Of a DNA stretch of 64,000 nucleotides, positions 1 to 35,470 are shown in pieces. Position numbers and translations under genes: made by a program. Origin of the DNA: an uncultured Bacilli bacterium (GTDB lineage Bacteria > Bacillota_I > Bacilli_A > RF39 > UBA660); contig CANRPB010000001.1 in assembly GCA_947632415.1 (NCBI GenBank), positions 19,549 to 83,548 of the forward strand. The letters run 5' to 3'. Under the pieces are notes generated by a model that was not told the origin of the DNA, searched no databases, and saw nothing but the letters and a program-made list of their open reading frames with translations. Every line of letters starts with the position of its first letter. Position 1 is the first letter of the stretch.

Positions 1-1
1 G

Positions 2-3000
2 ATGAATAAGCAGTAGACCGACCCCAATGAGTTGATGAACACTCTAGAAGATAAGGAAACCGATGCTGTTGACAATCAGACAGATGAAGATACCGATAAT
101 ACTGAAGAGTATGAAGATGAAGTAGATGCTGAAGATGATAATGCTAGTCTGAACCTTGGATTCACCGAAGAGCGTGATTCATTGCAGCGTAACATGTGGA
201 ATAGTGCTGATATTACTACTAAAATACTATTTTGGGTGATACCACAAGATACTGTTACTGGTAATAAACTCAATTACATGGGTTTAACAGATTATGCTAA
301 CCCAGCTTAGATGTATATCAAGTTTACTGAGTTACTACAGGATTGTGCCAGTGAAGAGTAGATGATGGAGATACTGAAAGAGAATGCAGTTAAAGATAGT
401 TCAGTACAGGCTGTATATGAGTACCTTACTTAGGATGATGACCCTGAAGTAAATCAAGCATTACAGAACAAATTCTTCACTTCTACTTGTAGGTATAGAC
501 ATAGCTTTGAGAATACTACTTACGAACAGGAGTTTGATGAATACGGTAATGTAGTTGCTGTTACTGCTAGGAGTTATAATGGTAACATGAATGAAACTAC
601 TACTAAAGTCAGATATGCACTTATACGTCAAATAACTAGTGCTTTAATCAACCGTGCTACTAGACCTGATAATAATCAATATAAGAGTGCTAATGCTAAA
701 CAAGCCAAAGAAGCTATATCTAAACTGATAAATGCTTTAGCTGGCGTTAAGTACAATAAAGGCGAGTTAACTAAGCGATTAGCTGAATTACTTAAGTTAT
801 CCTATGAAGTAAATGGTTTCGGTATGCTTGTAGATGGTGACTATGACTTATCACAGTCTGTAGACATGATTATGAGTTATATCTGGGATGAGAATGGTGG
901 TGTATCTACTGGTTAGGTTGATAATACGGCACTCAGGAGTTTGATAAGTGTATTCAACATCATAAATAACAATGTTACTGGTATTACTGGTGAATCAGTT
1001 AAGAATGATGAAGTTAGTGTTAAGCAGCGTATAAGGAAGATAATTGATGAGAATGTAGAGTTATAGAACTTCTTAAAGAACATTAGTTCTTATGCACCTA
1101 GACAAGCTAGGATGATGTCTTAGAACGGTCCTAAAGGTGTTAGGATATACACTATTGGAGCATATAACTACATCACTAGGTTATTCCAATTATGGACTAA
1201 ACCTATACGTGGTGCATTATCCAATTGGCGAGATGCAATAGCTAAAAACCCATACGCTGGTCATTCAGTTTGGCTAAAGAGCGGTAGATTACCTAAAGCC
1301 AAATTGAATACTCGTCTACAGACTATGACTTCAGATAACTTTAATAGCGCACAATCAGATAAGTATGTTAGTCCTGATGTAGAGCTGATAAATCGTATGG
1401 TTACAGTACTTCAAGTAGACAATTCTGGTAAATGGTTAGGTGGCCATGCATTCCCAGTATTGGCTAATAAGAAGTTCTCTGCTGATTTAACTGGTTTGGT
1501 TATAGAAGCATTAGAAAGACCTGTTCATGCAGTAGCAACCGCAAGTGGTAAGTTTAGTTACGATATAAACATCGGTGCTAAATAGGTGTTTGCTGGTTAC
1601 TTCTTAGATGAAGTAGCTGCAATAAAGGATGCTAAAGCTGCTAGAGATAACTTCATTGAAGTTATTAATCGAGTAAATGGCACCAAACACACTGTTCAAA
1701 GTTTCTCTGAATTAAGTATACCTGAACAGACTAAGTTGCTTACTGCTAGTGAAGCGCAATCGGTTGAAGGCCTTCATGAGATAAACAATGCTCTAAATAA
1801 GTTAGTAGTAACATATCACTTTGAGTCTACTAAGAATGAACCGGTATATGACAAGCAAGGTCGCGTGGTATCATTCAATACTTCTCATATAGACTTACGT
1901 GAAGGAGCTGGTTATGGTCATAGACACTTTACTAATGTAGCAGCTAGGTTAAGTGCTAAAGGTATAGACTTCGATACGTTGGACATCAATAATCCAGATT
2001 TGTTGAATGCTATAGAAACTGAAGTATTACAACCGGGTATAGCTGATACTATAAAAGCAATGGAGTCTAGAGGTGTTAGTAGTTTAATACCTACTAACTT
2101 GGTTAGTGACTACGCTAAGATATACAAATCATCTGACGAATATACCACCGAATTACTAATGTTGGCTACATTTGCTATTAGGCACATGTCTGATATGCTC
2201 GAGTATGAGAAGTTGGTATAGGGTGATATGGCATACTTTGGTAAAGGTGGTAAGCGTTATCGTAAGACAATTGATGGTATGACTAAACGTTACTCAGGAC
2301 CTGTATCTACGTTTGGTTTGAATGCTTCGAAAGGTACTAGACCTATGTCTTTGACAGCTGATGACACATATGATTTGAGTAATAGTAATGTATACCAATC
2401 ACTTACTATATAGACTACTAAGTTGATAGACTACGATGTATTTGAAGGTTTGGTAAATAGGTCATTAGGCTTACCCGTATAGATAGATTATAGCGTAGAC
2501 ACAGAAGAAGGTGCAGTTACTCCATCATTCAGTCATGAGCAACTGTTAGGTGAAGATGGGTTACTTAAGAAAGAAGTACTCAATGGTGCATTTAAAGACT
2601 ATACTGTATTCAGGAAGTAGAATGAAGATGGTTCATACGATGCTAGTGTTGATACTGCAATCGCTAAAAGTATAGTTAAAGACGTATTAAATCGTTATAC
2701 TGGTTATCTGTCACAAAACTATACTGATGCTACCTCGTATATATCATCAACCATGTTTAGGGAATTAAGGCAGCGTAGTGATGATGGTTGGACAGACATT
2801 CAGGAAGCTTGCTGGTTGTTCATGGAACACTACGATAATCTATGGTAGATGTATAATAACCGTGAGCTGACTAATGACTGGAATGCTATGGTTTGGGCAG
2901 CTCATCAGTTAGGTATCGATGATGAGACATTAAATGGGTTTAGGATTGATAGTGATAGACTATATAATCCAGCACATAATTTTAATTCACCTGATAGGCT

Positions 3001-6000
3001 GAATAGCCCTAAACACAGGGAACAGCGTGCTAAGTACCGTGGTAAGATATTAGCTTACTTGGAGGATGAGAATGGCATACCTAAGATAGATACTACACCA
3101 ATGAAGTATCTATACTACGGTAATAAACCGTAGTTTGATACTGATACTCCACTATATATACCTATCTATGACAAGACTGCATTGGTACCAATGTTCAAGA
3201 TATTCACTGAAGATCATGACGCTGAACATCTATATCGATTGATGCATGACTCAAATACGCAATTCGTTAAGTTTGATAGTACTACTAAGACTGGCGGTGG
3301 GTTTAGTTATCAGTTATACGATGAGAATGGTAATTTCAATAGTAATTTGAACTTAGCACCTAGACAGTTACAGTACTTTGACCAGTTAGGTAAACAGCTC
3401 GATACTGATGCTCATACTAACCCGAATAGTACATTGTTGACCCAGCTAACTAAGATCTCAATGCTTAATACTGTCGGTAACATATATTCATTATCTGGTA
3501 AACAGTTAAATGGTAAGCAATTAAATGAGTTATATGCTGCTACGTTTAACTCACTCACTAGAGATGGGTTTGATCGGTTTAAGCGTACATTTGGGTTCAA
3601 TAGCGAAGGTCAACTTGACGAGGAAGGTAGGAGAAAACTGGTAGCTAAATTAAGGAAGATACTTGAAGATTCAGGTGCATCACAATCAGTTATAAACTCG
3701 TTTGATTTAGATGAGAACGGTGATTTTATAACTACACCAGCTCTATTACCTAATGGTAATCAAATATAGTCTAGGTTATTATCTCAAGTAGGTAAGATTA
3801 TAGTTGATACGCACATTAAAGGTTTACCTTTATATCAGGTTGTAAGTGTTGGATTTGATCAAGATCATCCGTTAAAGAAAGGTGTTTCCTTCGATAAGGA
3901 GCTGTTATCGCCTGGTGATATTGATGAGAATGGAAATACAGTCACTAGGATGCAAGCTAGAGTATCTATACTACTGTTCAACGATGTCATCAACGAAGCT
4001 AAGAAAAATGCTAAGTTAAGTAAGAAGTATAATGGTTTAACTAGTTTCTACGATAAACGTAGATTCTTACTTAACAATAAAGATAAGTTACCTTCATTAG
4101 TATATCGTGTGCCTACACAGAGTCAAAACTCTGTAATCCCAATTGACATAGTTGATGTTATGCCAGCATCGCAAGGTGCTGTTGCTCAATTACCTACTAC
4201 ACTTACTGCTTTAACTGGTGCAGACTTCGATATTGATAAACTGTATACTGCAGTATTTAATTATGATATAACTGATGATGGTATTGAGAAAGTAAACTAT
4301 ATGGACAAGTATAAGACATTTGATGACTTAGTTGCCCATATGGACGAACTTAATACTAAACAGAAAGAGAATCTGTTATTGGATATATTCCAATCAGTGT
4401 TGACTAGTGATAGTAATTTACTGCATACTACTGTTCCTCTAGACGTATGTACTGATCCAGTAAAATCGGTTATGACTAAAGAGGTTAAAGTTGAAGGTGA
4501 TAATACAAACCATGACGGATTCTCATTGACACCAGCGCATCAAGCACAAATGCGTGAGCAAAATGCTAATTCTGATACTACAATTGGTCCTATGGCGCTT
4601 AACTCTGTATTCCAATACTATTTGCAAACCACTGGATTAGACTTTATAACTGATCCGTAGTTAGAGAAATTAGGTATACACGGTTTAGGTCATTCATCAT
4701 TGACTGTCAAGGATACTATGCGTATAGCATATTTACTGGATGTTACTTCAGCAATGATTAATGCCTCTGTGGATGCTGCTAAAGACAATTACATTGGTAG
4801 AGCTAATATTAATAGTGGTACTTATGATGTACTTAACTTTTTAATTGCTAGTGGTTTCGATTTGGATACCTTTAGATTCATAGCTCAGCCAGGTGTAAAG
4901 TAGTATGTTTCTGAATAGCTGCGTGGTTCTAAAGATGCAATATTTAAAGTTAAAGCGGATACTGCCGGTGTAGGAAGTGGATTTAGTATTCAACCAGATC
5001 TATTTACTACAGAGAAACTTAAGGCTGAATTATAGAATCCTACTAGAGAGGCTCAACAGTGCTATGTTTCTGCATTTGCATATATTCAATCTATTGCGTC
5101 TAGGTATAGACAAGCTATATCAGTAGCTTAGGTAGATACTAAGAAATATGGTAAGAATGTAACTGAATTAATGGCATTCCTATAGAATGTAGATGATTAT
5201 GAATCAGATTATAACTTAATCTTCTCTAATCCAGATACTCTGTTTGAGAATTCATTCTTAAAAGAGAAGTTAAATGCTATTAGAGATGCTATGGGCATGT
5301 TTAGTGACATATTCTTAGAGAACTCATAGTTGTTTAAGGATGCTAGTACTAGGCTAAGTGATATATTCGGTAAGCGTGGCCCTTATAGTAAACAATTGTT
5401 ACGTAGAGCAGTGCCAAAGCTTAAACAAGCTATCTTTAAGATATTCTTTGATCAGTACATAGTTAATCGTTTCTCTTCTCCAGATGGACAGATAAATTAT
5501 AGTCCGTTATATACTCTATTCTGCGACCCGAAATTATCAGTAGTTGCTAGATATGACCACATAAAGGAACTATGCGAGAAAGAGCATAATATAGGTTCAG
5601 TATTCTTTGAGATAGTCAAATATGCTAGAGCTCGTAAGAACTCAAATGCGCCTAGGTTCTTTGTAGTTAACAATGCAATTACTACAGATCCAAACCTTAA
5701 ATAGGCTGTATAGGATAGTATAGCAGAATTATTCCATAGTGGTAATCCAGAAGTAAGACAATGGATAACTGATGCTGCTGTTATGTAGTTCTATCAGACA
5801 GGTGGTACTGATACCACATCAGGTACTGCAGTCAAATCATCGTTCTATGATATGCTTCCACCACAAGAATTAGGCAACATTGAAGCTAATATGGGTAATG
5901 GTAATACTACATTCAATGAGTTTGTCAAGTCTGGTGACTATTATGGTGACTTAGATCAGTTAGTCGATGAAGCTATACTTTAGCTGTCTATAAGTGATGA

Positions 6001-7507
6001 TGAGTTTGTGCCAGTAGTTAAGACTTACGGTAAAGCTAATTCATTTAACGTATAGTTAATTGGTGATAAGTCAGTAGCTATAGCTCGTAAAGCATCTAAT
6101 AAGCTCAGACGTGACTATATGGGTAGTAGGTATGCTAAATATATCAAAGTATAGACTAGCAGGGAGGAAACTCCTACATTATACGTACTCGGTAATGTGG
6201 TAAGGACTGAAACTACTGATCAAAAAACTGGTGAACTTAAGGTATATTATAATCCAATATACTTCAAGATGAATAAACTTGGGTATAGACAGTATGGTAA
6301 TATATCCAATAGTATACGTGTAGATGGTGCTGTATTCTATGATGAAAATGGTATTCCTTATCGTAGGTCATTATTCAATAAGCAGACTCAAGGCTTGATG
6401 AGTGATAACAGATACCATAGATTTACTGCTTAGAACTTGGCACAGCTTGAAACTGAGCAAGTACAATCTAATGGTGTTAAATTGGCTTACAAAGCTAAGG
6501 ATGAAGTAGTAAATGCATTAACTAAGAATGGTGCTAGATACCAGGTATTTGATGTAGACGAAGTTGGAAATGTGTTATTTGATGCAGATAATGATCCGTA
6601 CAGAGGATACTTTGAAACTGGTAACCATAGAGGTACCCAGTTAGTATTATCAAGGTTATCGTAGGCACCAACTGATACTAATGTTCTAATGGTTAACCAC
6701 GCTAAAGAAGTAGGCGCTACGTTCCAATAGTTAGTTAAAGTTGGTGATGAATATAAATTCATTGGTTCTGATACTGAACTTACTGGTACAGTAACCTTAT
6801 TGTTCAACAATCGAAGTGAAATTCAAGAAGCTGCTGATTAGATATTTAGTAAGTATCCTGGTGTAAATATTGTTAAATTATTTGATTCTACCAATCGAGA
6901 AATCATTTCATTGTCTCGTGGTGGTAAGGTTGGCTCAGCAGATAATAGTAGATTAAGATATAGTGCACAATTTACTAGAGAAGATGCTATAAATCATCCT
7001 AATTTACTATACATATTTACTGATAATACCGATAGAACATCTGGTGGTTAGGAATATGGTGAAGGTTGGTATAAAGACAAGTATGGCACTGGTGGGTTTG
7101 GTAGCAGGCGTAATCCAACTACTGCTGTAGTACGTGGTTTGCCTAATGCAGCTCCTATATCAACTATGAAGTGGTTCTATAAAAATCACGGTCTAAGCGA
7201 TTATAAAGCTGCAAGATGGACAGATGCAGATATGAATCAAGTAATGAATGTTGTTAGTGATGAAGTTAGAGATATATTGAATCTATGGGAATCTGGTAAG
7301 TTTGACGCTGTAGTATTCCCGAATGAAGACTTTTTATTAAATAGCTTGATCGCTGGCATAACTGAAACTCGTACGCCTCAATTGTATGCATATTTTAAAG
7401 CGGTGAAGGAATTTCTCAGTGACACTATAACCGGTAAGGTTGGCGATATGTTATCGGATATAAACAACAAGAAAGATTCTGAAGACCAAAAGAGTAAAGA
7501 GTGTTAA
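2..7507 (+). CDS. Giant virion-associated protein with RNA-polymerase-like DxDxD motif. Continuous only with TAG read as sense. May start at ATG 2 or upstream of the window.
   Basis: 13 track ORFs (32..310 through 7139..7507) all lie in frame 2. Gaps read codon by codon (310-587, 916-1304, 2413-2849, 3769-3950) contain only TAG stops. The frame closes at TAA 7505-7507. DFDID motif at 4223-4237. Confidence 0.8.
4223..4237 (+). other. DFDID (DxDxD) candidate metal-binding motif of the crAss-like virion RNA polymerase family
   Basis: Codons gac ttc gat att gat in context TALTGADFDIDKLY. The assignment to the phi14:2 gp66-type RNAP family is from memory of published work, not from a search. Confidence 0.6.
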
Positions 7508-7510
7508 TAT

Positions 7511-10500
7511 ATGTGCCCAAATGTGAATAATAATGAAGTTGTTGAACAGTTTAACTAGATTGTTCAACAACTCGGTGGGGAACCACTTAGTATTGAAGAG
7601 TTTAAGTCTTCAGAGCTGAGAAGTAAGAGAACTGGTAAAAACTACGCTGCTATGGAGGCTGCCTACCGTATATGGAATTATATGAACGGTGAAGTAACCG
7701 ATGCTAGTACAGCTATAAACCAGTATACACAATCATTAAATATACCAGTTAGATAGAAAGTAGCTGAGGTTAACCGTCGTAGTCCAATAACTAATGCTGC
7801 GGAACATGCAGCATCTACAAGGATTTCAAGCTTACTAGCTGATTTATACCCTGAATTATCAGTTGAGTATCGAAGATCATTAGAAGGTGGTAATTTAGGT
7901 GAAATAGACTTAGGAGCATTAAAAGTTTTAGTTGATTTCGTGAACGGTAGGGCTGATACCCTACCACACGAATATGCTCACTACTATTATGCTATGTTCT
8001 AGAACTCAAAGATAATGAAGGAAGGTATCAATGTCTTTGGTTCTGAAGAAGCATTAGTATCAGCTATAGGTAGTAGAGTTGCTGAGTTAGATGGTAAACA
8101 GCGTAGATGGTACCAAAAGTTTTTAGACTGGATTAAGTCATTCTTTAGTACTGAATTACGTAAGAAAGCATTATTAGGTGCTATAACTGATGCATTCCTT
8201 GAAAGACGTGATTTAGGTAATAGAATTTATGAATTATTTGGTGTAAGACATCAAGCCGCAAGTAACTTAAGCGTAGATGAAGCATAGTTAGCTTTAAGTA
8301 AAATGGCTAGCGATTTAGTATTTGATGAAGCATCACATACTTACTCGTTACGTGGTAGCAGCATAGCATTAACAGCAGTTAGTGATTTAAAGACTAAACT
8401 CGGCTATAATAATTACGATGATACGCTAGAAGATGCTGACTAGAAAAAACTATCAAATGACGCTAGAACACGTGGTACAATGATCCATGCTGTACTTGAG
8501 GATACTTTCAATGGTAAGTTTAATCTCAGTAGATACTCTAATATCAGTCAAAGAGCTGCTATCAAACTGAATCAGATAGCTGAGAAACTATTGGTAGACT
8601 ATGATTTCGTAGCATCAGAAGCAATGATGTACGATGAAAGTATTCAAGCTGCTGGTACCACTGACTTGATACTACGTGATAAGAAAACTGGTGAATATGT
8701 AGTACTTGACTATAAGACTAAACTAGTAAAGTATAATGGTAAAGAAGAAAAACCAAATGGTAAAAGATTTTGGGGATTCTCTTATGCTACTAGTAAGAAC
8801 AAAGGTCTTAAGTCTAGCTCAGATGCATATAATTTCCAGACTAAGCTGTACCAGAAAATGTTATAGAAGCTTGGTTTGAATGTTACTAAGCGGGGTATAA
8901 TACCTTTAGTGTATGAAGTAGATGAACGAGATGGTAGTTGGTAGATAACTGATATTAATACTAGCAAGATATTTGGCTCTGATATAGACGAGACTGGTGG
9001 ATGGTCTGGTATACCGATTAATGATAAGAAAGCAGGTGTACAGTGGATGTCTGAAGATACTACAGTTAATAGGGATATTAATGCTAAGTTATATGAAGAT
9101 TATTCTGATTTTGCTACACCTGAAGCAGGTAAGCGATTTGTAGCTGCTATGGATGATGCATTCAATATCATCGCCAAGATACGTAATAAACTAAATGCTC
9201 AGATTGCTATAGCTACACGTCGTGATCGTAAATCAGCTGCATATAGGGGTAGAGTTGCATTGGCTAGAGTAGATAGTTCATCAGAATTAGATGCTATGCT
9301 AGCTTATATGCAGTATACTCAAGATTAGCTTAATAGAATGGTAGAAGTCCTATAGGATTTATCCAAGCAAGGTGAGAATGCTCAGTGGTCATTAGCTAAA
9401 TTAGCTTAGTACTATCAGATAGCTGAATCAGTTAATGTGCTTAATAATATAAGTAGTTTCTTAGCTGGTAATGAAGACTTATTAAATAAGTCTGAAGTAT
9501 CACAGTTGACTAGAGCAGTAAATCAACTATAGACTTCAGTAAGTATCATTAAAGGTTACTATGATAACTAGGGTAAGAGACTATACTTGAATGTTATATC
9601 TAAAGGTGTAACTGCTTATAGGCAGCGATTGATTGAAAGGTAGGAAGCTAAGTATACTGAAGAACACCCACAGTAGAAAGGTGAGTCTGGTAAAGCATTC
9701 GTAGCTAGACGTAAGGCTTACATGGACTAGTGGATATAGGATAATGAAGATTATCTAACTAAAGAATAGAACAAGTGGTTAGAAGCTTAGACTAGGATAG
9801 CTGATAAGAGCTTTGAAGCTAATGCTATAGGTTAGTATTTCTCTTCAGTATATGAGTCAACAGACCCGTTTGTCCAATCAATGGTTAGGATGTACGATGA
9901 AGGTATGGAAGAAGTAAACCATAAGCGTATATTCATGATGAATAGACTTAATAAGTTAGTTAAGCAGTACTATAGTGATTACGGGTATAACTCATTATCT
10001 AACTTCCGTAAGATGTACGATGATTTCGTTGAGATAACTGAAGACGGTAAGTGCTATTTAGTTGGTAATGTTAGTGCTTAGTTTTTAAATGCTCGAGAAA
10101 AGTTTGAATATGAGCTAAAAGGTTAGACTACACTTACTGCAGAGGAACGTAGAAAGGCTAGAAGGGAATGGTATGACGAGAATAGCCCTGTGAGCGATTT
10201 AGAGGCTTATAGCGAGGACTTCTCTCATTAGCTGGAGGGTTACCTTACCGAGTTAATAGAGTCCGAAAATGAGCGTTAGAAGCTGTTTAGGAACATACTA
10301 GATAACTTCAATAAAGGTAAGCTGAAAGCGAGTTGGTAGAAGTTCATATTTGATAAGAATGGACCTGTAGCTAAGGATAATAAGATTAATCAATATGAAC
10401 TATGTGATTTCTTACTTGAGTTGTAGCGTACTCTAGATATTAATCACAGGAAACCTAGTGATAAGTATGCTAATGAGAAGTATGATAAGATGATGCAACT

Positions 10501-12355
10501 TGATGAGAATGACAGTAAGCGTAAACTATGGGAAGCATTATCAGAGATAAGTAATGATGAATATCAATAGTATAATCTACCATTACCACTGTAGTTACGT
10601 GGTAGACTACCGTCTATAGTTAAAGGTAAACTTGAATAGGCTGTAACCCATTCAGTTGGTTCTGCTGTTAAATTGGGTATATAGGATGCATTCTGTTTAA
10701 TGGAGGATGACTATGAACTGATACATGGTGAGTTCTATGATGAAAATGGCAATAAGATATATCAAGTACCTATGCCGTATACTGGCAAGCGTATAACTGA
10801 AGATAAATAGTCATTCAACTTACCTGATATATTCCTTAGATATTATGAAGCTGCTAACACTTATAAGGTTAAGCGTAACTTAGAAGAGTATATAAAATAT
10901 ACTTAGTCTATATTAGCTACTAGACGTACTTATGAGAATGATTAGGTTAACTACGGTAATCCTGAAGAAGGTACTAAGTATGTTGGTAATACTAAGAAGT
11001 TATTTGATGCTTGGGTAGATCAGGTGTTCTATAATGAGCGTATAAAAGGTAGGGGTTAGCTTAATATAGGTAAGTATAAGGTAGAGAAAGCATTGATTTT
11101 GAAGGCTATAGCTAAATTCTCATCAACTAAAGCGATGGCTGGTAATATTGTATCAGCGGTTAATAACATATTAGTTGGTGATGCCCACGGATGGGAAGAA
11201 GCTGTAGCAGGTAAATATATCGATCTTAAGAGTTATCGTAAGGCTCATAAGATGTTCATGAAAGCTATACCTTAGATAATATAGGATGCATTCAGAGTTA
11301 CGCCAGAAAATAAAGTTAATAAGCTGTGTTAGTGGTTCCACATATTTGATGGTAGTGAAGGTGTTAGTTTACGTGGTGCTATGTCTAATAGTCCTGGTAA
11401 CTATATCTATGCATTAACTGCTTTGGGTGAAAGATGGATATAGGGTAAGTTCGTTATAGCTTACTTCTTGAAAATGAGAGCTAAAGATAAGGATGGTAAT
11501 AACCTTGGTTCTATGTGGGATTTTGTTGATTTTGATGAGAATAACCAATTAACAGTTAATGATTAGAGAGTAGCTAATTTTGATGCTGGTACTCAAGCTA
11601 AGGTTTCATTAATGCTACGTAAAGTATCTATGGGACTTAATGGTAACTATGATGGTTAGAGGGCAGCTGTAGCAGTTGAAAGTAATGCTTTAGGCTGGTT
11701 TGGACTTGCTTTAAGACGATGGATAGAACCGTTTGTAGCTAGACGTTTAGGTCGTGAAACACATGATGATACACTAGGTACTGTCAATACTGGTATGTAT
11801 CGTACTTTCCGTAGATATATGTGGAATGATGCTAGGTTGGAATTGTTATAGCATATGCCTGAATTCTTAAAACATTTCTTTGGAGTATAGGCTAAAGATG
11901 TTAATGAACTTAAGCGTAACTTTAGGAAATGGGCTGAATTACATGACTGGGAGAAAGCTAACATTAAGCGTACTTCTGTTGAACTTGGTTTAGCTATGCT
12001 GGCATTGTTGATTTTTGCTGGACTTGGTGGTAGTGGTGGAGATGATGACCAGAATAATTTCACTAGGTTTGTCAAATATTAGTCATATAGACTTTATTCT
12101 GATTTGACTTTTGTTGCTAATCCTGTTTCCTTTACTAATATTTTCCGTGACCCATTCCCTGCACAGAAGCTTATTACTGATGTAGCTAGTGTGGTTAATT
12201 AGTTAACTGATCCTACCGAAGAGTATTAGAGTGGCAATCATCTATTTGATAATAAACTGATTAACAAGACAGTTAAGTTGATACCAGGATCTAATCAGAT
12301 TTATCGACTTCAAAATATTCAAAACGAAATTAATTACTTTACTAGAGGAAGATGA
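7511..12355 (+). CDS. Second giant protein (about 1614 codons) with HExxH, PD-(D/E)XK-like and C-terminal hydrophobic segments. TAG read as sense.
   Basis: ATG 7511 lies 3 nt after the upstream TAA. 5 track ORFs share frame 2. All gaps I read (7511-8015, 8287-8480, 8866-9047, 9328-9881, 10081-11093, 11275-12355) contain only TAG. Stop is TGA 12353-12355. HEYAH at 7967-7981. TDLIL...VLDYKT...FQTKLYQ in 8480-8866. Confidence 0.8.
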
Positions 12356-12371: not shown

Positions 12372-12920
12372 CTAGATTGGTTGCCATGTTCTAATGACAT
12401 ACAAGAAAGGGTGAGTAGTTATACTCACCCTTTTGTTTACTTTATTGAGATCTAATTGCACTTCATTAGGATCTATTCTCCTTAGTTTTTTATGTAATTT
12501 ATCATATCCTTTAAATAAGTCTGTACTATCTTTAGGGTATGAAATCCAATCTATTTTGCTTATAAAGATTGAAGATACTTTCGTAAACTCATTATTTAAA
12601 ACTAATTCTGTATCGGTTTTAAATTTATTAGGTATATGAAATGAATATATGTCATAACAATCACCGTCTATTTCTTCGTAGTAATTTGAATAAGCGTATT
12701 CATTGTTGTTATAGAATGTTTTAAAATTTTTCGGTGCTAAATTCTTGAATACTACGAATATTTTATTACCCCAAGCTGGTTTGTTTGTATCACCTATGTA
12801 TACACCTATAAATCTACTATGAAGTATTAAGTTGAAATCTTTCTTTTCTTTGCATACGATTGGAAATATATAGAATGCCATTAGATAACGAGTATCAGAT
12901 CTCTTCAGTTCCATCTCCAT
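12372..12920 (-). CDS. Hypothetical protein
   Basis: 182-aa ORF ending in TAG (cta at 12372-12374). The alternative start M14 (12881) would remove the 26-nt overlap with the upstream gene. Confidence 0.55.
   Translation of the reverse strand: MEMELKRSDTRYLMAFYIFPIVCKEKKDFNLILHSRFIGVYIGDTNKPAWGNKIFVVFKNLAPKNFKTFYNNNEYAYSNYYEEIDGDCYDIYSFHIPNKFKTDTELVLNNEFTKVSSIFISKIDWISYPKDSTDLFKGYDKLHKKLRRIDPNEVQLDLNKVNKRVSITTHPFLYVIRTWQPI
12406..12438. terminator. Bidirectional intrinsic terminator at the convergent junction
   Basis: 12-bp perfect stem AAAGGGTGAGTA/TACTCACCCTTT with loop GTTA, followed by TGTTT on the + strand. It lies 50 nt past the TGA of the giant gene. On the - strand it is followed by TTTCTTGT. 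Confidence 0.7.
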
Positions 12921-13872
12921 CGTAATATGCTTTTGGATGGTCCCAATTTCCTGTCTGATAATGGTATGATAATTCTGTTAATGTATTGATAATAAGGTCT
13001 TTGCGACTATCTAACTCAATTTCATTAAACATGTTAAATACTCTCACTTCATAGCTATCATTCGTTTGAATTGCAACTATATATGCTTCGCAATCATAAT
13101 CTGATATATCTATACCTAAGTCAGTCATATACCAAGTAATTGCGAGCAAGTAATAACATATCTGCCGATAGTAATCAAACTCTTCAACAGAATGCTTAAA
13201 GTTATATACGTCACTGGTTGTCTTTAAGTCAATCAGTGTTATTTTTTTATTTATATGGTCGAATATACATCTATCAAGTAATGACTTACACGGTGCTATC
13301 CAATTATTTACTTTAAATTTCCAGTTAATGTGGAATTCATTATGAGATTCCACTCCAGGTATATCTGTTAGCAATTCCTTTGCTTTCTTATGGTTATATA
13401 TATTATCCTTAATAGTATTTAATATATTCAAATCGGCAAAGCTAATTGCTTTTCTATTCTCTTTGTTATGTTTTAAAGCTTCTATATAGTCAGCATACTT
13501 CTCACATAGCTCTGTCGCTTCTTTTAAGGCGATTTCAGACGTTTTCTGGTTACTATATGAACTACGGTATGCCTGAAGCTTTTTCGTGTCTTCTATGAGC
13601 TCTAATGAGCTCGCATAAGCTTCACAGAAATCCTTTTGTTGTTTTACTTTAGGTACTTCATAATCAAGTATAATATAATCATGCCAGAATTCATCTGGTT
13701 GCAGTATATACTCATGTATCATAGTACCTCGTTCAAGTTGAGGTAGTTTTAATCCTTCCTCTTTCCCGTCTATCATATCCTTATAATACCGTGGTCCTTT
13801 CTTTAAGAACCACCCGATTGCTGAGTTTGATATTCGCGTGTTATCTTCATAATACGGAATCTCTATTTTCAT
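12895..13872 (-). CDS. PD-(D/E)XK (RecB/Cas4-like) exonuclease
   Basis: Motifs ERGTMIHEY, DHINKKITLIDLKTT (D...DxK) and YYRQICYY (QxxxY). 325 aa. TGA stop. Confidence 0.7.
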   Translation of the reverse strand: MKIEIPYYEDNTRISNSAIGWFLKKGPRYYKDMIDGKEEGLKLPQLERGTMIHEYILQPDEFWHDYIILDYEVPKVKQQKDFCEAYASSLELIEDTKKLQAYRSSYSNQKTSEIALKEATELCEKYADYIEALKHNKENRKAISFADLNILNTIKDNIYNHKKAKELLTDIPGVESHNEFHINWKFKVNNWIAPCKSLLDRCIFDHINKKITLIDLKTTSDVYNFKHSVEEFDYYRQICYYLLAITWYMTDLGIDISDYDCEAYIVAIQTNDSYEVRVFNMFNEIELDSRKDLIINTLTELSYHYQTGNWDHPKAYYDGDGTEEI

Positions 13873-13994
13873 GCTGCTAAATATAAATCGGTTTCAACTT
13901 CCATGTTTGTATTCCATGGGATCTCGTCTTCTATATCCTGACGGATATGTTTAGACATCTTGCATATGACTATCATTAGAAATAAAATCATGAT

Positions 13995-23063: not shown

Positions 23064-23591
23064 CTATACTGCTAAGGATAAAGCAGGAGATTCAATGTCA
23101 AGTTCTGCCTTTTCATTGAAGTCTGATATATCTTTATTCAGTTTATTTATTTCTAATTGTAACTTATTCTTCAAACCTGCAATATATGCAGAAGTAAGTT
23201 CTTCAGTTTTGTCTAGATTCTTTTTACCTTTAGAACGTTTTAATTTCGGATCTAAAGTCTTAATCTTACTTAAATGAAATAGTGCTTCAGACTTTTCGCA
23301 TAAAGTAAAGATGTTGAGATAATTATTATCTTTAGGTAACTCCGTAAACTTCTTATAACCCATATTAATACACTGCATATACAGTTTTAGAAGTATACGT
23401 TCATCAGACAATTCAGTGATTTTCTGTAACAATGCTTTTAAGTCATAGTTACGTTTCGCACCTTGCGGAATAACATTCTCTTCTTTAATTTTATTCCAAT
23501 AGAAAGTAATTTCATTAGAAATTTCCTTAATACGACCGATTTTACCTTTATTCTTATCTCCAAGTAAATATAATGATGTAATTGATTTCAT
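23064..23591 (-). CDS. Hypothetical protein
   Basis: The track ORF runs to 23711, but its first 40 codons cover a tRNA-like minihelix. M41 (MKSITSLY) is taken as the start. TAG stop. Confidence 0.55.
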   Translation of the reverse strand: MKSITSLYLLGDKNKGKIGRIKEISNEITFYWNKIKEENVIPQGAKRNYDLKALLQKITELSDERILLKLYMQCINMGYKKFTELPKDNNYLNIFTLCEKSEALFHLSKIKTLDPKLKRSKGKKNLDKTEELTSAYIAGLKNKLQLEINKLNKDISDFNEKAELDIESPALSLAV

Positions 23592-23641
23592 ACGCAATTT
23601 GATTTTTAAATTAATACTTGACCAAATTACATCTACCAGTG

Positions 23642-23683
23642 TATCCGGTATGGGAATCGAACCCATATTAACCATTACCGGAT
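23642..23683 (-). ncRNA. tRNA-like minihelix (acceptor stem plus T-arm only)
   Basis: - strand: ATCCGGT AATGGTTAAT ATGGG TTCGATT CCCAT ACCGGAT A. Confidence 0.45.
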
Positions 23684-23775
23684 GAATAATAGTAAAAACC
23701 CTATTCAGCAATTACTATTAAAACAGTACCCAGTTCAGTACTGTGAAATTATTTAGTTTTTAGATCGTACCCAAT

Positions 23776-24336
23776 TCAATACTCTCTGCTTTTTACCAAC
23801 CGGCCGAGTGTAATAGGGATTATCCGTCCACCAGTTTTTATACCGACTATAGCACTGAGCCCATCCACAGCAATGTTAGTATCGGTTATGTCCTTACTTT
23901 TTGCATATTTCTCAATATTCTTCTGATTAATCCATTTGGAATGGAGTTCTCCATCAGAACAATTCCGCATGCAATCAAATAGAATATCTACTATGCAATC
24001 ATAATCTTTTCTCTTCTTAGCTTCGTCAATGATACTTTTAGTAATCTCATCAAAAGCTAATTCATTTCTAGTTCCGTTAGAACCAGTAATTGCATCTGCA
24101 ACACTAATAGAGACATCTATAATACTCACCGATTCATAAGTATTAAATAATCTTTGCCACCATAACGGCCCACTTCCATAGTATAAGAAGACCCGTCCAT
24201 CCTCTTGAATACTTACTTTTTTAGGCGTTTCTTTACTTCCTCCGTTCCAGATCTGAACTTTGGACAATATGGTTGGTTCAGAACATATTAGAATTCGCAG
24301 AAGTTCTACTCTTGTTTTAGAAAGTCTGCCATCCAT
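23776..24336 (-). CDS. Hypothetical protein
   Basis: 186-aa ORF. TGA stop. Confidence 0.6.
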   Translation of the reverse strand: MDGRLSKTRVELLRILICSEPTILSKVQIWNGGSKETPKKVSIQEDGRVFLYYGSGPLWWQRLFNTYESVSIIDVSISVADAITGSNGTRNELAFDEITKSIIDEAKKRKDYDCIVDILFDCMRNCSDGELHSKWINQKNIEKYAKSKDITDTNIAVDGLSAIVGIKTGGRIIPITLGRLVKSREY

Positions 24337-24344
24337 AAACTCTA

Positions 24345-24974
24345 TTATTCGTTAGTTTCTGTTACAGTTGCTGTTACATGAATTTCGGTAGTATCATCAT
24401 TCAAACCACACTGTCGTAAATAATCTGACTGCAAACGCTGATTCATGTCAATATATCCACGAACCGTTTCAGCCAACTGCATACACTTCCGTGACATTTC
24501 TTCATAGAAGTTAAGAACATTCTGATTAGACAATTTAGTCAAATCATTCAACATCGGTAATTCTTCAGCAGTGAAAAACATCGGCTTTGAACCCGGTTTA
24601 TTCAACCGTTCAATACATTCAATAACGTTCTGGCGTGTTGCTTTAGTAAATTCAGGTGAAACCATTTCAAATACTAAAGACGGATCATTCTTCTTTTCGT
24701 TCAATACGATTTTCGGACGACCATCTACATCTTTCTCCAACAAAGATACTGATTCAACATCAATAGCTTTAAGGATATAAGCTTTTACTTCCTGACGGAA
24801 AGTATTCTTACCTGTAGCTACATCTTCCTTATACTTAAGATCTGGTGCTTGTGCTACGATTGTAAATATCTGCTGCCCAAAGAACGGGCCATATTTCTGC
24901 GCAGTCTGGCGATATCGTGCCATAACCTGTGCTGCTAAACTCGGTGCAGTTGCACTCTTTACTGAAACTTCCAT
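24345..24974 (-). CDS. Hypothetical protein
   Basis: 209-aa ORF immediately downstream (- sense) of the 2.1-kb ORF-free region. Confidence 0.65.
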   Translation of the reverse strand: MEVSVKSATAPSLAAQVMARYRQTAQKYGPFFGQQIFTIVAQAPDLKYKEDVATGKNTFRQEVKAYILKAIDVESVSLLEKDVDGRPKIVLNEKKNDPSLVFEMVSPEFTKATRQNVIECIERLNKPGSKPMFFTAEELPMLNDLTKLSNQNVLNFYEEMSRKCMQLAETVRGYIDMNQRLQSDYLRQCGLNDDTTEIHVTATVTETNE

Positions 24975-27116
24975 ATAATTGTTCCTTTTTGAGTCCGTAC
25001 TTGATATACCAATACGAACAAGTTATACACTATGTTAATAATCTCCTCACTGTTCGGTCATTTACTGGTTACTCAATTATGGAGTAAGTGAATTCAATCA
25101 CATAACCTACTAAGTTTCTATGCATGATAATAAACTGTTAGAGTAATTTGAAAATATCTACTGATAAATTCTTTGATAATAGTTTGTTAATATAATTTTA
25201 TCGTCCCGTTTCGACGGTTAAGATTCAATTTTTTCGATGCTTAACGCACCCCTCACCGTAATCTCATATCGCGATTAGATGCAATATGAAAAACTAAGTC
25301 AATGGCATCTTTTCAGCCTATTAGTGTTTCCGGGTATTACGACAATCTACGCGATTGAAGGTCGTTTATCTAACGTTACTAAACTCACAAGCTCATTGCA
25401 TATAGCATGACCCACTTGTACCATTTCCAGGATTTCTTTGTTTATACTGCACGAACATTAGGATTTCCACCTATCATCGTTCCCTTGTTTGCTCATGGAA
25501 TAATTTTCGACATGAGTGTACTATTAACCATATAGAGACAGTATATGAATTGACACAGGATGCTAACGAATCAGCGTTCTCTCACATCAGTAGTTGCGGC
25601 TACTAACTTTACGAGTGTCTTAACGGTCAGCAATGTCGGTTGGCAGTCGGGGTGGCTCGTACTCCTTAACTTCTATCTTACAACAATAGTTTGAAATCTC
25701 TGTACTACCATTGGACTTCCCATTTATTAATGATTAACAATCATGACACGCTTTGGAGTCGTGGCGGGTCAATTACTAGCCAAAACAACTTCTTAATCTT
25801 GTATTACATCTAATACCCAGTAAGTTATTGTACTCGATTTTTATTTTGTACGATGGTCCTTATCCAAAATCCTGGAATGGACTAGTCTAATTTCCAAAGG
25901 TATTTACATATCTTGAAATACTTAAGCTCTGCTTGTTTTTAAAGGAGTTTTCAAAGCATCTCCTAAATTCATTTTTACTACGTAATAACACTTGCTAAAG
26001 GTGTTCGCTTCTAAATTCAGGGTTAAAGCGCCCTCATAATCGCATTTTAGGCTTTTATTGTTTTTGCCTCGTCATTTCTCATTGTATTATACTCATCTAC
26101 ACGACTAAACTCATGAGTCACCTTAGACTTGAAAGACGGTATCAATCTCATATACCTCATCCCTTATACGTAAGTTCTTTTGCAGCACACTAGTTACGGT
26201 AATGCACAGGATTGGCTCCTGCTCCACGATAATCAGTCGTATTTCTACGGATCATTGCGTTTCCAGCTTTCATATCCTTACTTTGTATAAGTATGTACCA
26301 TAACACGGTTATCCTTACATTAGTATCAGTAATTTCCTCCCTTCATATATGCAAGTTCCAACATCCACAATTGCATGTTGCATCACAGCTGATGTGCATA
26401 GAACACTAGAGTTAGCCTATTTTCCTATCTGGACGTATAGTTGACGCTTTTGTTGACCGATTTTGGAGACCGGTTGTGCCTGTAATGGGCAGTATTTGGT
26501 ATGTTTCGGCTTCTCTTTCCAAAGGATTAGCCCAGGAACCGGATTGTCCCTGTTTCAGCATCGTGTTCATACTCCTGTTTGATTCTGCTTTTGATAAACT
26601 AATAACGAGTATAAGGATTTCGTTCCTATTTTGGAGATTGTGGATATTGTTACTAAGTAGTTTTATTTGTTTATTCTACTAACTATATCTCTCCGATTTG
26701 AATTAATTTATGACTAGGGTATCTTCTTGTAGCTCCTAAATCAAGGGTTCTTCACATTTAATATCGCCAGCCGGTTCTCATACTATTTGTGTGGGCTATT
26801 CACCCTCTCCCACTTTCCCTACCTTTTTCACCAGTATGGGCTATTATCCTACCTTTTGAGTATCTCACCGTTGTTGCGGCTATGGAGCATCTCATAACTA
26901 CTCCTGACATATTCTCGGATTCTGTATCTTTCGGGCTATAACTAATGAGTTAAACTCCCTGACGGGCGCGACCAGTACTATTGTGTACTTTACCGCATGA
27001 CTTCCCCGGAGTGATTTACGCTACAGTTTTACTCCTCTCGTACTATGATATAATTATAGATTTTTAAAGTGGTTATTATCATTAACTATTTACCACTAGG
27101 CATTTCTCGTCTGCCA
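24975..27116 (-). other. 2.1-kb ORF-free region. Candidate large structured non-coding RNA or other non-coding element. Strand is inferred from skew and neighbours.
   Basis: Only one ORF of 60 aa or more in six frames (26476..26682, low complexity). All three - frames near 27060 hit TAA. 26761-26880 counts A19 C37 G20 T44 (47.5% GC, 67.5% pyrimidine on +), versus 19/60 GC in the adjacent ORF (27121-27180). Confidence 0.4.
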
Positions 27117-27503
27117 TTAATTATTCTGTTCTGGTTCTAAACTGATAATTTTACCTGTTATTAGGTCGATTGTTGCAACAATCTTATTACCTTTACAAAT
27201 ATCTACGAATTTATTTCTTATATCATTACTACTGATATAATCAATAGGATCCATACTCTTCGCGTTAAAACCATCCAAACATTCACAAGCATTACTTACA
27301 GACAAATGTAAGTACTTCTCTGAATATAAACAATTTCTTATACTCGCACATGTACTATTATAAAGTGAATCAGAATTATCTCCATTTATAATAAAATAAT
27401 CTGTTTGAGCATTAACAGAGGTCAGTTTTGCTCTGGCCTCTTTAAGCTCCTTTATGATACGAGACAACCGTATCATTTGTTTAAGTATAACCTTATTGTT
27501 CAT
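27117..27503 (-). CDS. Hypothetical protein
   Basis: 128-aa ORF. TAA stop. Confidence 0.6.
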   Translation of the reverse strand: MNNKVILKQMIRLSRIIKELKEARAKLTSVNAQTDYFIINGDNSDSLYNSTCASIRNCLYSEKYLHLSVSNACECLDGFNAKSMDPIDYISSNDIRNKFVDICKGNKIVATIDLITGKIISLEPEQNN

Positions 27504-27894
27504 GATTCTTTACTAATTGTAATATAGATTGAGGTCGTTCGTCATCAGGTACCCTGCCTATAGACTTAACATATGGATACCCTGTTGAATTCTCTTTCTC
27601 TATTATTTTAGTTTTCCACTTAACTACTGGCTTTGGTTCGCCAGTAGTCTTTACATTCACAATTGCATCTGTTGTTCCTTTTACGGACACGTTTAATGTA
27701 GCTAAATCTATTTCTACATCAATTTGGTCTACAGATTTTTTCTCCTCTTTATTCACTATAGGGAACTTAGGTAGTTCCACAATTGAGGGAATTACAGGCT
27801 GTGCCTGTACAACTTCTGTAGTTGCAAATAATTGTCTGCCAATAAAGACACTAACAACGAACATTACCGCTACAGTTAATATTCTCCTATTCAT
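27493..27894 (-). CDS. Hypothetical secreted or membrane-anchored protein
   Basis: N-terminal hydrophobic segment ILTVAVMFVVSVFIG. 133 aa. Confidence 0.6.
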   Translation of the reverse strand: MNRRILTVAVMFVVSVFIGRQLFATTEVVQAQPVIPSIVELPKFPIVNKEEKKSVDQIDVEIDLATLNVSVKGTTDAIVNVKTTGEPKPVVKWKTKIIEKENSTGYPYVKSIGRVPDDERPQSILQLVKNHEQ

Positions 27895-27940
27895 TTGATT
27901 GATTAATTACTCAAGAATACCTATTTTTAGTAAAAGCTTC

Positions 27941-29428
27941 TTAAACCAGTTTATTTTTTTTCTCCGGTTCAGTAGCTGGATATTCTCCTTCTTTAGGAGC
28001 AATCAGTGTATCTTGACAGTATTCTGCAAGACGATCAGCAGGATCACGATACAGATTAATAATCTGCCCTACTACTAGGCGTAAATCATCTTCAGTGAAC
28101 TTTTTATTTGGTTTATCAAAGTAATTAGTTCTTACACTACCAAGAATCATGCGAGCAGCTTTACGATCACTTTCTATTTGAGCTTTCTTATTCTCTTCAA
28201 GTCCTTCAGTAGATATGTTATAATCGTTGAATAACTTAGAGATATATTCTTCACCAAGTATACCAGTAATTGCTTTCAACGCTTTATCTTCTTTGGGATC
28301 AAGCTTCTCGTTATCTTTCAGTTTATAACGGAATTTAGTTGTAAGCAATTCACGTAACGCCAATGCTACTTGCTCTTCAGACCAACCAAGTTTACTCATG
28401 TGATAGTGCAATATGGAATGCGCCATACACGGTGAACCGGTTAGTGATGTATAAGTATACATAGCCTGACCAAGGCCACTCATTAATGCGGTCGGCTCAA
28501 TAAGTTTAAATATTTCTTGAATCCAATAATCAACTCCTTTATCATCTAAAGCGAGTCTCTTATCAGTATCATTTTCTTTGCCCAAACAATAGACACGATA
28601 CCACTCAACAGTATTTACTATATTTGCGGCAGTGTTCTTTGTCTTAGTAATAAGATATTGAAGTGCTTCCTTCAATTCTTCTTCAGTAGTGATCTTCTTT
28701 GGATCAAGCTCGGGTACAACTGATACTACTTCACCTTCTTTCGGTTTCAAATCTTCAGGTATTTCAGATTTAGCGAAATCAAGTTTCATTTGACCGTCAT
28801 TACCCGGTAACGCTTTGGCAGGTGCTAGTTTAATACCTAACATGCTTGCCATGTTCTGCAAAGGTACAATTTGATCTTCACTTATGAGCAGATTCAATTC
28901 ACCTTTCTCATTCTTACTAAGCAATTCTTGACGGACATCGACTAATGCCAATAGAGTAACAACATCGATACTCTTCATCAAGTCACTATACAATTCCGGA
29001 TAGTTCTTAACGAGTTCTTCATTCTTACCATATTTTTCCCACATAACATGAGCAAGCATGGCTTTACCATCTATACTAGATGTTGGTGCACTCATGGGAA
29101 TACCCGTTGTTCCACCAATTAAAGAAGCTGCACGTTCCAATGCTTTCTTACCTCCTTTTAAGTCAGTATCAGCATTTTCTGGAATGATAGTAGGAATCTT
29201 TTCTGTCTTCTTTTTAGGCTTATCTGGAGCTTTCTGGGTGTCCTTCTTTGCCTCTACTTTTACTTCAGTAGCTGTAGGAGTAGTCTTTACTTCCTCTACT
29301 TTCACTTCTTCAACTTTTGGTGTTTCCACCACTTTAGTTTCTTCAGCTTTTTGCTTAGCTTCTAATTTTGCAGCTTTTTTTGCTGCTTTCAATGCTGCTT
29401 TTCTTTCAGCTTTTGTCATTTCTGCCAT
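27941..29428 (-). CDS. Hypothetical protein with a Lys/Ala/Glu-rich N-terminal region
   Basis: 495-aa ORF. N-terminus KAERKAALKAAKKAAKLEAKQKAEE, then VEEVKVEEVK repeats. Confidence 0.65.
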   Translation of the reverse strand: MAEMTKAERKAALKAAKKAAKLEAKQKAEETKVVETPKVEEVKVEEVKTTPTATEVKVEAKKDTQKAPDKPKKKTEKIPTIIPENADTDLKGGKKALERAASLIGGTTGIPMSAPTSSIDGKAMLAHVMWEKYGKNEELVKNYPELYSDLMKSIDVVTLLALVDVRQELLSKNEKGELNLLISEDQIVPLQNMASMLGIKLAPAKALPGNDGQMKLDFAKSEIPEDLKPKEGEVVSVVPELDPKKITTEEELKEALQYLITKTKNTAANIVNTVEWYRVYCLGKENDTDKRLALDDKGVDYWIQEIFKLIEPTALMSGLGQAMYTYTSLTGSPCMAHSILHYHMSKLGWSEEQVALALRELLTTKFRYKLKDNEKLDPKEDKALKAITGILGEEYISKLFNDYNISTEGLEENKKAQIESDRKAARMILGSVRTNYFDKPNKKFTEDDLRLVVGQIINLYRDPADRLAEYCQDTLIAPKEGEYPATEPEKKNKLV

Positions 29429-29490
29429 TTTGATAATAGTTTAAAATGTTAAATAAATTAGTTAAATACACATTAAAGATAGTTGAAATG

Positions 29491-29862
29491 TTAGCTATCA
29501 TTTTGAATTGCTGGTGGGTTTCTTCCATTAGTACCTGTATGTTTACTAATTAGTGCGTCAAACAATACCTCATCTTTAATGATGTGACCTGCAACCCCAG
29601 ATTGGCAAACGGTAGTACCTTCTGTCACTGTAGCTACTAAGCTTTGCATGCACATTAAAGGATCAGCATTATTTATGGTGCTAATCAGTTCAGTAACTGG
29701 TTTAACTGGGTGTTTAGACCCAGTTAACCCTTTACTTAACATACCTACTAATAGACCAGTCATAATAGCAAAGAGTAGTTTCCACCACATCTTTGTACTA
29801 CGAAACAATCTAGCAATAACAAATGCTGCCATTACTAGAACAATAATAATTGCTGGTGTCAT
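29491..29862 (-). CDS. Membrane protein downstream of the sigma factor. Anti-sigma role is speculative.
   Basis: Two N-terminal hydrophobic segments (AIIIVLVMAAFVIA, LLFAIMTGLLVGML). 123 aa. Its start is 14 nt after the sigma gene stop. Confidence 0.6.
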   Translation of the reverse strand: MTPAIIIVLVMAAFVIARLFRSTKMWWKLLFAIMTGLLVGMLSKGLTGSKHPVKPVTELISTINNADPLMCMQSLVATVTEGTTVCQSGVAGHIIKDEVLFDALISKHTGTNGRNPPAIQNDS

Positions 29863-29876
29863 AGTTAGTAATGTTT

Positions 29877-30437
29877 TTAGTTTAACAATTGTTTTAATCT
29901 CTCTCGCGCATTATTTAAACGCGCTTTAACTTGTGATTCTGTAATCCCAAGTTTATCACCTATCTCTTTATAAGATAGATTTTCAGTAGTACGTAACTCT
30001 ATTATAGTCCTATAATGAGGTCTAAGCATTTTTAATGCTTCAGTTAATCGTGAATTAGTTTCATGACCAATATATATTTCTTCAGGTGAATCGTCGGCCG
30101 AACTCCTCACTTGATAGAAATTTTCTTCATCATCTAATTCATAATCATACTTTTCCTTTTTAGTTCTACGAATATAGTCTATACTACTGTTTATAGCTAT
30201 TGTTTTTAACCACATTTCAAATGAAATATGATATGTGTACGTAGCTAATTTAAAATAGGCTTTAGTAAAAGTCACTGATACTAAATCATCAGTTACGTCT
30301 TTATTTCTCACTATGTCATATATGACATTATGAATGACGTGTACGTATTTATTATAAAGCATAGTGAAGGCATTCTGGTCGCCTTCTTTAGCCTTGTTGA
30401 TGAAGACTAAGAGCTGTTGTTTCTCTTCATCTGTCAT
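29877..30437 (-). CDS. ECF-type sigma-70 family RNA polymerase sigma factor
   Basis: Region 2: DLVSVTFTKAY...FEMWLKTIAINSSIDYIRR. Region 4 HTH: LSYKEIGDKLGITESQVKARLNNARERLK. Start taken at MTDEEK (30437), not the track start 30530. Confidence 0.85.
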   Translation of the reverse strand: MTDEEKQQLLVFINKAKEGDQNAFTMLYNKYVHVIHNVIYDIVRNKDVTDDLVSVTFTKAYFKLATYTYHISFEMWLKTIAINSSIDYIRRTKKEKYDYELDDEENFYQVRSSADDSPEEIYIGHETNSRLTEALKMLRPHYRTIIELRTTENLSYKEIGDKLGITESQVKARLNNARERLKQLLN

Positions 30438-30484
30438 AATATTAGGCTTGTTAGTGGTTATAACAATAACCAAACTGTTATAAC

Positions 30485-31770: not shown

Positions 31771-31799
31771 AATTTAATTGATTTAAATTGTTAATAATG

Positions 31800-34116: not shown

Positions 34117-34133
34117 AACTTGATATTATTAAG

Positions 34134-35442: not shown

Positions 35443-35470
35443 TTTGATAATGTTTTTAAGTTAATAATTA

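Follow-up and report, generated by a model that had tools for sequence, protein, structure and literature searches.

Two giant late genes of a crAss-like phage in which TAG is predicted to encode glutamine

The stretch of DNA analysed here (64,000 nt, called the window in the following) comprises bases 19549-83548 of contig CANRPB010000001.1, for short C1, of the assembly GCA_947632415.1, which is filed under an uncultured Bacilli bacterium. At its left edge the window carries two giant genes, gene 1 and gene 2, that are open only if the amber codon TAG is read as sense. The meaning of TAG in these genes and in the remainder of C1 is the subject of this report. The features of the giant-gene region are as follows:

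1..7507, plus strand: C-terminal 2501 codons of giant gene 1, with 33 of its 86 TAG codons; stop codon TAA at 7505-7507
3074..5197, plus strand: region of gene 1 homologous to the virion RNA polymerase (vRNAP) gp66 of phage phi14:2 (PDB 6VR4; E 6.5e-19)
6956..7393, plus strand: DUF7831 domain (PF25176) at the C-terminus of gene 1, borderline with 27.3 bits (cut-off 27)
7511..12355, plus strand: gene 2, 1614 amino acids (aa), with 44 TAG versus 19 CAA and 19 CAG; stop codon TGA at 12353-12355

Under the standard code (translation table 11), the plus strand of positions 1-12400 holds 18 open reading frames (ORFs), 60-236 aa long, for which ATG, GTG or TTG starts are possible. The initial annotation, which had been made from the letters of the window, described the 18 ORFs between 32 and 11275 as sharing one frame, and indeed all their starts are congruent to 2 modulo 3. 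With TAG as a sense codon they fuse into two ORFs, 2..7507 with 33 TAG and 7511..12355 with 44 TAG. From 2 to 12355 this frame (4118 codons) contains 77 TAG but only one TAA (7505) and one TGA (12353), which are the two gene ends; this agrees with the earlier observations that the gaps read codon by codon contain TAG and never TAA or TGA, and that the frames close at 7505 and 12353. TAA and TGA together occur 614 times (329 + 285) in one of the other two frames and 184 times (114 + 70) in the other. At the lower of these off-frame rates about 184 would be expected in the frame of the giants, and the probability of finding two or fewer is ~1e-76. The claim that two giant genes exist only with TAG as sense was thus confirmed, but the extent given for gene 1 was not: its full ORF is C1:10520-27055 with 5511 codons and 86 TAG, of which 3010 codons lie upstream of the window, so that the product has 5511 aa instead of 2501 aa. 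The gene start at window position 2 is an artefact of the window edge.

DNA-level searches are defeated by the rapid evolution of the giants, which were therefore compared by protein tblastn. Megablast of 1-12400 gave a sole match of 290 bp, a search of gene 2 against viral contigs gave no close relative, and the giants were at most 50-60% identical to any relative found. The nearest one, with 50-60% aa identity, is MT835645.1, an unannotated 23-kb fragment from a Mexican faecal sample. It aligned with residues 8-5319 of gene 1 in a single tblastn segment of 5406 columns with 50% identity. In this fragment the corresponding frame stays open over 5337 codons, with 57 TAG and neither TAA nor TGA inside, and terminates at TAA; the second gene comes next, arranged as in the window. 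These data bear on the most obvious alternative, in which TAG is a true stop and the long frames are a series of short independent genes or of degraded pseudogene pieces. The 18 table-11 ORFs with their possible starts are what such a region would offer, but only the two gene ends were seen where ~184 TAA and TGA are expected, homology runs unbroken across the TAGs, relatives have CAA or CAG at many of the TAG sites, and the catalytic vRNAP region would be split up. We regard this alternative as extremely improbable. Because the alignment with MT835645.1 is unbroken and the frame of this relative is free of TAA and TGA, the giant ORFs are, as judged from homology, single genes. Independent short genes after each TAG, which the initial annotation had named as the outcome that would speak against it, are excluded by the one segment in which the relative aligns along the giant ORF.

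The gene 1 product aligned with chain A of 6VR4 over ~700 residues. The metal-binding motif DFDID encoded at 4223-4237 was aligned to DFDID of the phi14:2 protein, and the catalytic DxDxD motif is therefore present in the gp66-homologous region. Gene 1 is predicted to encode a giant virion or cargo protein that contains a gp66-like virion RNA polymerase. Its N-terminal part, which lies outside of the window, gave only matches of 50-90 aa to families with tape-measure and endolysin proteins, and a PDB sequence search with the N-terminal 3010 aa was without match. In the gene 2 product, an HExxH motif near the N-terminus (7967-7981) is followed by a PD-(D/E)XK-type exonuclease domain (~8318-8899; phrog_298, E 1.4e-14), and the C-terminal third matches genes annotated as "RNA-polymerase subunit" in crAss001-like phages; a PDB sequence search found no match. 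Gene 2 may therefore code for the next cargo-type protein, with metalloprotease-like and nuclease-like domains. By analogy with PhiCrAss001 and phi14:2, we take the products of the giant-gene block to be packaged into virions and ejected into the host cell, which would explain why the block belongs to the late, recoded class of genes.

C1 has a size of 98,653 bp and identical 77-bp ends, a terminal overlap which shows that the assembly is circular; it is a complete circular 98.6-kb genome of a crAss-like phage of the gut. The products of its terminase (TerL), portal and major capsid protein (MCP) genes match phrog_6681, phrog_6547 and phrog_11589, and a 1415-aa gene upstream of the giants codes for a crassvirus muzzle protein (PF25731, 902 bits). 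TerL, portal, MCP, muzzle and the giant vRNAP block are of the crAss type and present in the conserved order. Five large late genes of 1415, 992, 728, 5511 and 1614 aa stand in a row and are followed by a convergent minus-strand block. The portal protein is 78-79% identical to those of several Loutivirinae genera. Based on markers, synteny and portal identity rather than on a formal phylogeny, the phage is assigned to the Crassvirales and appears to be Suoliviridae/Loutivirinae-like, which fits the likeness to TAG-recoded crAss-like phages that the initial annotation had pointed to. The remaining parts of the window are organised as follows:

12372..37365, minus strand: early/replication block, compatible with the standard code, with 25 ORFs of at least 100 aa
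41931..42008, plus strand: atypical tRNA of 78 nt with anticodon CUA and encoded CCA, called by ARAGORN, at the head of the late block
42428..42500, plus strand: canonical tRNA-Met(CAU), 61.9 bits, immediately upstream of TerL
42518..64000, plus strand: remaining recoded late block in the window, with TerL (20 TAG), portal (13 TAG), split MCP (1 TAG), tail genes and genes of unknown function

Past position 64000 the late block extends round the circle and takes in the muzzle gene and the giants.

The comparison of coding density under table 11 and with TAG as sense, a check which the initial annotation had suggested, was carried out as a greedy ORF cover of the whole of C1. Density rose from 0.66 with a median ORF length of 94 aa under table 11 to 0.94 with a median of 177 aa when TAG was read as sense. 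With TGA or TAA as sense codon it was 0.71 and 0.79, respectively; unlike these, TAG thus gave a specific gain in density and length. On the plus strand, the late ORFs with 100 aa or more number 36; their 21,936 codons include 360 TAG, 388 CAA and 254 CAG, and each ORF terminates at TAA or TGA. TAG is therefore a heavily used sense codon, as had been stated before, and accounts for 36% of the glutamine codons across the late genes. TerL, portal and MCP, with their 20, 13 and 1 TAG, have no in-frame TAA or TGA and match their PHROG families over their length. The 25 minus-strand early ORFs of at least 100 aa behave differently: only 7 TAG were found in 5772 codons versus ~95 expected at the late rate, all 7 are located at ORF edges, and internal sense TAGs are absent. 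In four early ORFs (ends near 12372, 14864, 23061 and 30852) TAG precedes the next TAA or TGA by 1-12 codons, and from these positions TAG appears to be the real stop of at least four early genes.

TAG had also been described as locally the commonest of the putative glutamine codons. The count given for 9326-9881 was exact (12 TAG versus 3 CAA and 5 CAG in 185 codons), and the statement is true for gene 2, in which TAG amounts to 54% of the glutamine codons (44 TAG, 19 CAA and 19 CAG), but not for gene 1, with 86 TAG, 125 CAA and 99 CAG in the full ORF and 33, 51 and 36 in the part within the window. The share of TAG is indeed high, but it is not a local peculiarity, since it is general for the late genes: it ranges from 0 to 0.75 and exceeds the 0.54 of gene 2 in several of them. 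A special TAG richness of gene 2 was considered and rejected, since many late genes lie at 0.45-0.75 and some small ones reach up to 75%. The capsid gene has the lowest share of the large late genes (1 of 15 glutamine codons). Among late genes, TAG/(TAG+CAG) was moderately correlated (rho 0.50, p 0.018) with the use of synonymous codons ending in T and was uncorrelated with GC skew. In-frame TAGs were mildly enriched in the first fifth of the late ORFs of C1 (98 of 355 versus 71 expected), a weak effect that is uncorrected for the distribution of glutamine.

The initial annotation had left the amino acid open, and it was resolved by alignments to homologs beyond the window. To this end, every protein of C1 was aligned by tblastn, with X in place of TAG, to 82 related loci, made up of 80 IMG/VR relatives found via the portal, RefSeq genome cr4_1 and MT835645. 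The codons opposite TAG were CAA in 744, TAG in 717 and CAG in 407 of 3733 cases. Where TAG faced a sense codon in relatives (246 sites), glutamine was the commonest partner (65.5 site-weighted), followed by lysine (30). A Codetta-style comparison at these sites, with site-weighted partner profiles learned from the same alignments, gave scores of -632.9 for Gln, -764.3 for Glu, -791.4 for Ser and -792.2 for Lys, which puts Gln ahead by 131 nats. The two giants alone (121 sites) gave -319.7 for Gln and -382.1 for Glu, a lead of 62 nats. Both the Codetta-style inference and the tabulation of residues opposite TAG, which had been proposed as checks, thus favour Gln. TAG sites with a consensus of at least 80% in relatives were Gln in 18 of 29 cases, Lys in 3 and Glu in 1; in the same test, true Gln sites were Gln in 64 of 90 cases and Glu sites in 5 of 246. 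Conversely, TAG codons of the relatives align to Gln (32-36%) or TAG (22-26%) of the window phage, whatever their class of tRNA(CUA). Judged by these alignments, TAG in the late genes is glutamine.

A different residue at TAG (Glu, Lys, Trp, pyrrolysine, or Ser, Leu or Tyr as in class-II tRNAs) has to be weighed, since the tRNA(CUA) of the window is atypical and was labelled "Pyl" by ARAGORN, a label given only for the CUA anticodon, and since its D stem is like that of a long-variable-arm tRNA(CUA) of 91 nt in six relatives. Gln, however, beats Glu by 131 nats and all other residues by more, the votes at conserved sites are 18 Gln, 3 Lys and 1 Glu, TAG interchanges with both CAA and CAG in relatives, and the TAGs of the relatives align to Gln of the window phage for every class of tRNA. 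As to pyrrolysine, a gene for pyrrolysyl-tRNA synthetase (PylS) had no match in the assembly, phage contig included, and TAG aligns with Gln, unlike Lys. We therefore consider another residue very unlikely. The 91-nt tRNA(CUA) with its long variable arm (class-II-like) occupies the suppressor slot in the relatives L001, L015, L029, L030, L031 and L049, 2.7-5.0 kb upstream of the portal gene, and its D stem ATGT/GCAT is identical to that of the window tRNA; the TAG sites of these six relatives still align with Gln.

TerL starts 510 bp downstream of the tRNA(CUA) of the window, with the tRNA-Met in between. In-frame TAG was found in TerL and portal of all 80 IMG/VR relatives, and in 60 of the 80 the corresponding slot, 2.3-5.6 kb upstream of portal, is occupied by a canonical tRNA(CUA). 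The relative L078, which had no ARAGORN call, has a homolog of the window tRNA in the same slot (L078:6313-6391). The two sequences agree fully in the anticodon loop and the T-arm hairpin. Each of the 21 cloverleaf pairs is preserved, and in 8 pairs both bases have changed, versus at most 1 in slid controls. A scan of the collection for the pattern from anticodon to T-arm returned only L078. A single-sequence fold of the tRNA was no better than those of shuffled sequences (z = 0.53). The call was retained solely because the slot is conserved and because of the covariation with L078, and the window tRNA(CUA) is regarded as a candidate amber suppressor.

Several points weigh against the assignment of TAG to glutamine by this tRNA. 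The Rfam tRNA model misses the tRNA(CUA) of the window even at E<=10, and its elbow, as read from the sequence, is non-canonical, with the T-loop AGCAGAA and a D-loop without GG. The covariation support comes from one relative and thus from two sequences only. Neither a release factor gene nor a gene for a glutaminyl-tRNA synthetase (GlnRS) was found on the phage contig. Furthermore, the inference of Gln is an evolutionary one, which minority insertions of other residues would escape, and for this phage it rests on sequence, the known peptides being from two other crAss-like phages.

A third explanation takes the TAGs as artefacts, caused by errors of assembly or sequencing or by a modified base that was taken for T within CAG. 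It was raised because CAG and TAG differ by a single C-to-T change and because the plus strand is poor in C (GC skew up to 0.31); no support for it was found. The TAGs are confined to one functional class of genes and absent inside early genes, 80 relatives that were assembled independently show the same pattern, as do curated RefSeq genomes, and a dedicated tRNA(CUA) gene is present. The chance that the TAGs are artefactual is, in our view, negligible.

Taken as a whole, we are highly confident that C1 is a crAss-like phage with two regimes of translation, in which early genes use the standard code, late genes read TAG as glutamine, and the giants end the late block. In the proposed mechanism, the early/replication genes on the minus strand would be translated with the standard code of the host, with TAG absent or used as stop, and the late genes on the plus strand, coding for TerL, portal, capsid, tail, lysis and muzzle proteins and the injected cargo proteins, would read TAG as Gln ("code 15"). 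The suppressor tRNA(CUA) would be transcribed with the late block and charged with glutamine, charging and timing both being inferred. Following Borges et al. and Yutin et al., virion and lysis proteins would then be completed only late in infection.

The length of gene 1 sets a demand on this mechanism. The computed yield of an ORF with 86 TAG is 42% at a decoding efficiency of 0.99 per codon, 7% at 0.97 and 0.01% at 0.90. With 86 TAG in one ORF, decoding per codon must therefore be nearly complete and competition by release factor 1 (RF1) nearly abolished; this competition would be overcome by means that are not visible in the sequence. It is conceivable, albeit doubtful, that the ORF of 5511 codons needs a read-through of at least 97-99% per TAG and that this is achieved by an unrecognised anti-RF1 function of the phage or by an unusually efficient design of the suppressor. 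Equally speculative is the idea that the vRNAP ORF with its 86 TAG is the most stringent natural test of amber decoding within the lineage, passed by means of a tRNA with a remodelled elbow and without RF or GlnRS of the phage. The same demand on efficiency would keep TAG rare in the late gene with the highest expression, as seen with the 1 TAG in 15 Gln codons of the MCP.

The assembly that contains C1 gave no information on the host. The rest of the bin is a bacterial genome of 1.39 Mb with ~30% GC and an estimated completeness of 93%. The GC content of C1 is 35.8% versus 27-32% in the other large contigs. In the rest of the bin TAG is an ordinary stop (190 of 770 long ORFs), and the two release-factor genes of the bin sit on contigs other than C1. 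A spacer-like match linking C1 to the remaining contigs was not found. A host link between the phage and this metagenomic bin was therefore rejected; because of the missing spacer match, the use of TAG as stop and the difference in GC, binning is uninformative on the host, and the placement of C1 in this bin is probably a binning artefact.

Some further features of C1 were observed. The major capsid gene is split (51946-54406, plus strand): ORF 51946-52947 corresponds to residues 5-334 of the 495 of phrog_11589 and ORF 53933-54406 to residues 335-492. Between the halves lies an ORF for an HNH endonuclease (53050-53841), which looks like an intron-type insertion; Rfam gave no group I intron at the split gene at gathering score. 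A gene for a GIY-YIG homing endonuclease (54476-55177) comes after the split capsid gene. The TerL ORF (42518-45661, plus strand) has 1047 aa, and the terminase profile stops at residue 639. The C-terminal ~400 aa match only a PHROG of unknown function and could be a fusion or an insertion. Two RNA elements on the minus strand, RAGATH-9 (33272-33432, 140.5 bits) and a Hatchet ribozyme (34806-34904, 83.1 bits), are intergenic in the early block. From 24975 to 27116, solely short ORFs interrupted by TAG are present under either code.

Recoding of amber to glutamine in late genes ("genetic code 15") is known from crAss-like phages of the delta group/Suoliviridae (Yutin et al. 2021, PMC7886860; Borges et al. 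2021, bioRxiv 10.1101/2021.08.26.457843; Peters et al. 2022, PMC9523058). Suppressor tRNAs have been noted, and "extremely divergent" suppressors were thought possible (Yutin et al. 2021, PMC7886860). The TAG preference of crAss-like phages has already been analysed per family (Borges et al. 2021, bioRxiv 10.1101/2021.08.26.457843), and peptides with Gln at TAG were found in two crAss-like phages, with none in regions of code 11 (Peters et al. 2022, PMC9523058). The recoding of TAG to Gln in late genes is thus already documented and annotated in this phage family, to which the phage described here adds a divergent member, and knowledge of phage recoding remains unchanged. The main value is a correct annotation: under table 11 the phage breaks into ~180 short ORFs and loses the vRNAP polyprotein, muzzle, TerL and portal, but with TAG as Gln it is an ordinary, densely coded crAss-like genome. 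What is added is a divergent Loutivirinae-like phage, a longer giant gene of 5511 aa and a non-canonical candidate suppressor tRNA; in addition, long TAG-rich ORFs are good reporters for neutralisation of RF1.

Like the code-15 crAss-like phages, this genome has TAG in TerL, portal and other late genes, and its early genes can be read with the standard code. A putative suppressor tRNA(CUA) opens the late block, TAG is equivalent to Gln, and code 15 restores the coding density. There is no difference in principle, but the tRNA elbow is non-canonical and missed by Rfam, and the share of TAG among the Gln codons is high. The closest annotated systems are the RefSeq genomes cr4_1 (NC_055893.1, Buorbuivirus hominis) and cr60_1 (NC_055891.1, Buchavirus hominis), both Suoliviridae, Loutivirinae. 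Their gene order is that of the window phage: muzzle, two mid-size genes, the giant, a second large gene and a convergent minus-strand block with exonuclease, MRE11 and primase. In cr4_1, these coding sequences of 1376, 744, 594, 4491 and 1803 aa are annotated through 30, 7, 7, 38 and 18 TAG, with neither TAA nor TGA; those of cr60_1 have 1370, 732, 556, 4494 and 1473 aa, and here too the two largest of the giant block (4494 and 1473 aa) are annotated through in-frame TAG. The portal proteins of these genomes are 78-79% identical to that of the window phage. The orthologs of gene 1 are gp26 of cr4_1 (4491 aa) and gp27 of cr60_1 (4494 aa), and the ortholog of gene 2 is gp27 of cr4_1 (1803 aa, "exonuclease", 18 TAG). 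The giant ORF of the window phage is ~1000 aa longer (5511 aa), and the giants are only ~25-30% identical. The cargo or "RNAP subunit" genes of PhiCrAss001-like phages lie downstream of the muzzle gene, as do the giants described here. The phi14:2 protein gp66 (PDB 6VR4) and gene 1 have ~700 residues of homology in common, including DFDID. Gp66, which is assumed to be encoded in the standard code, was solved as a chain of 2194 residues, whereas the polymerase described here sits in an ORF of 5511 aa with 86 TAG and a further 4000 aa of unassigned function.

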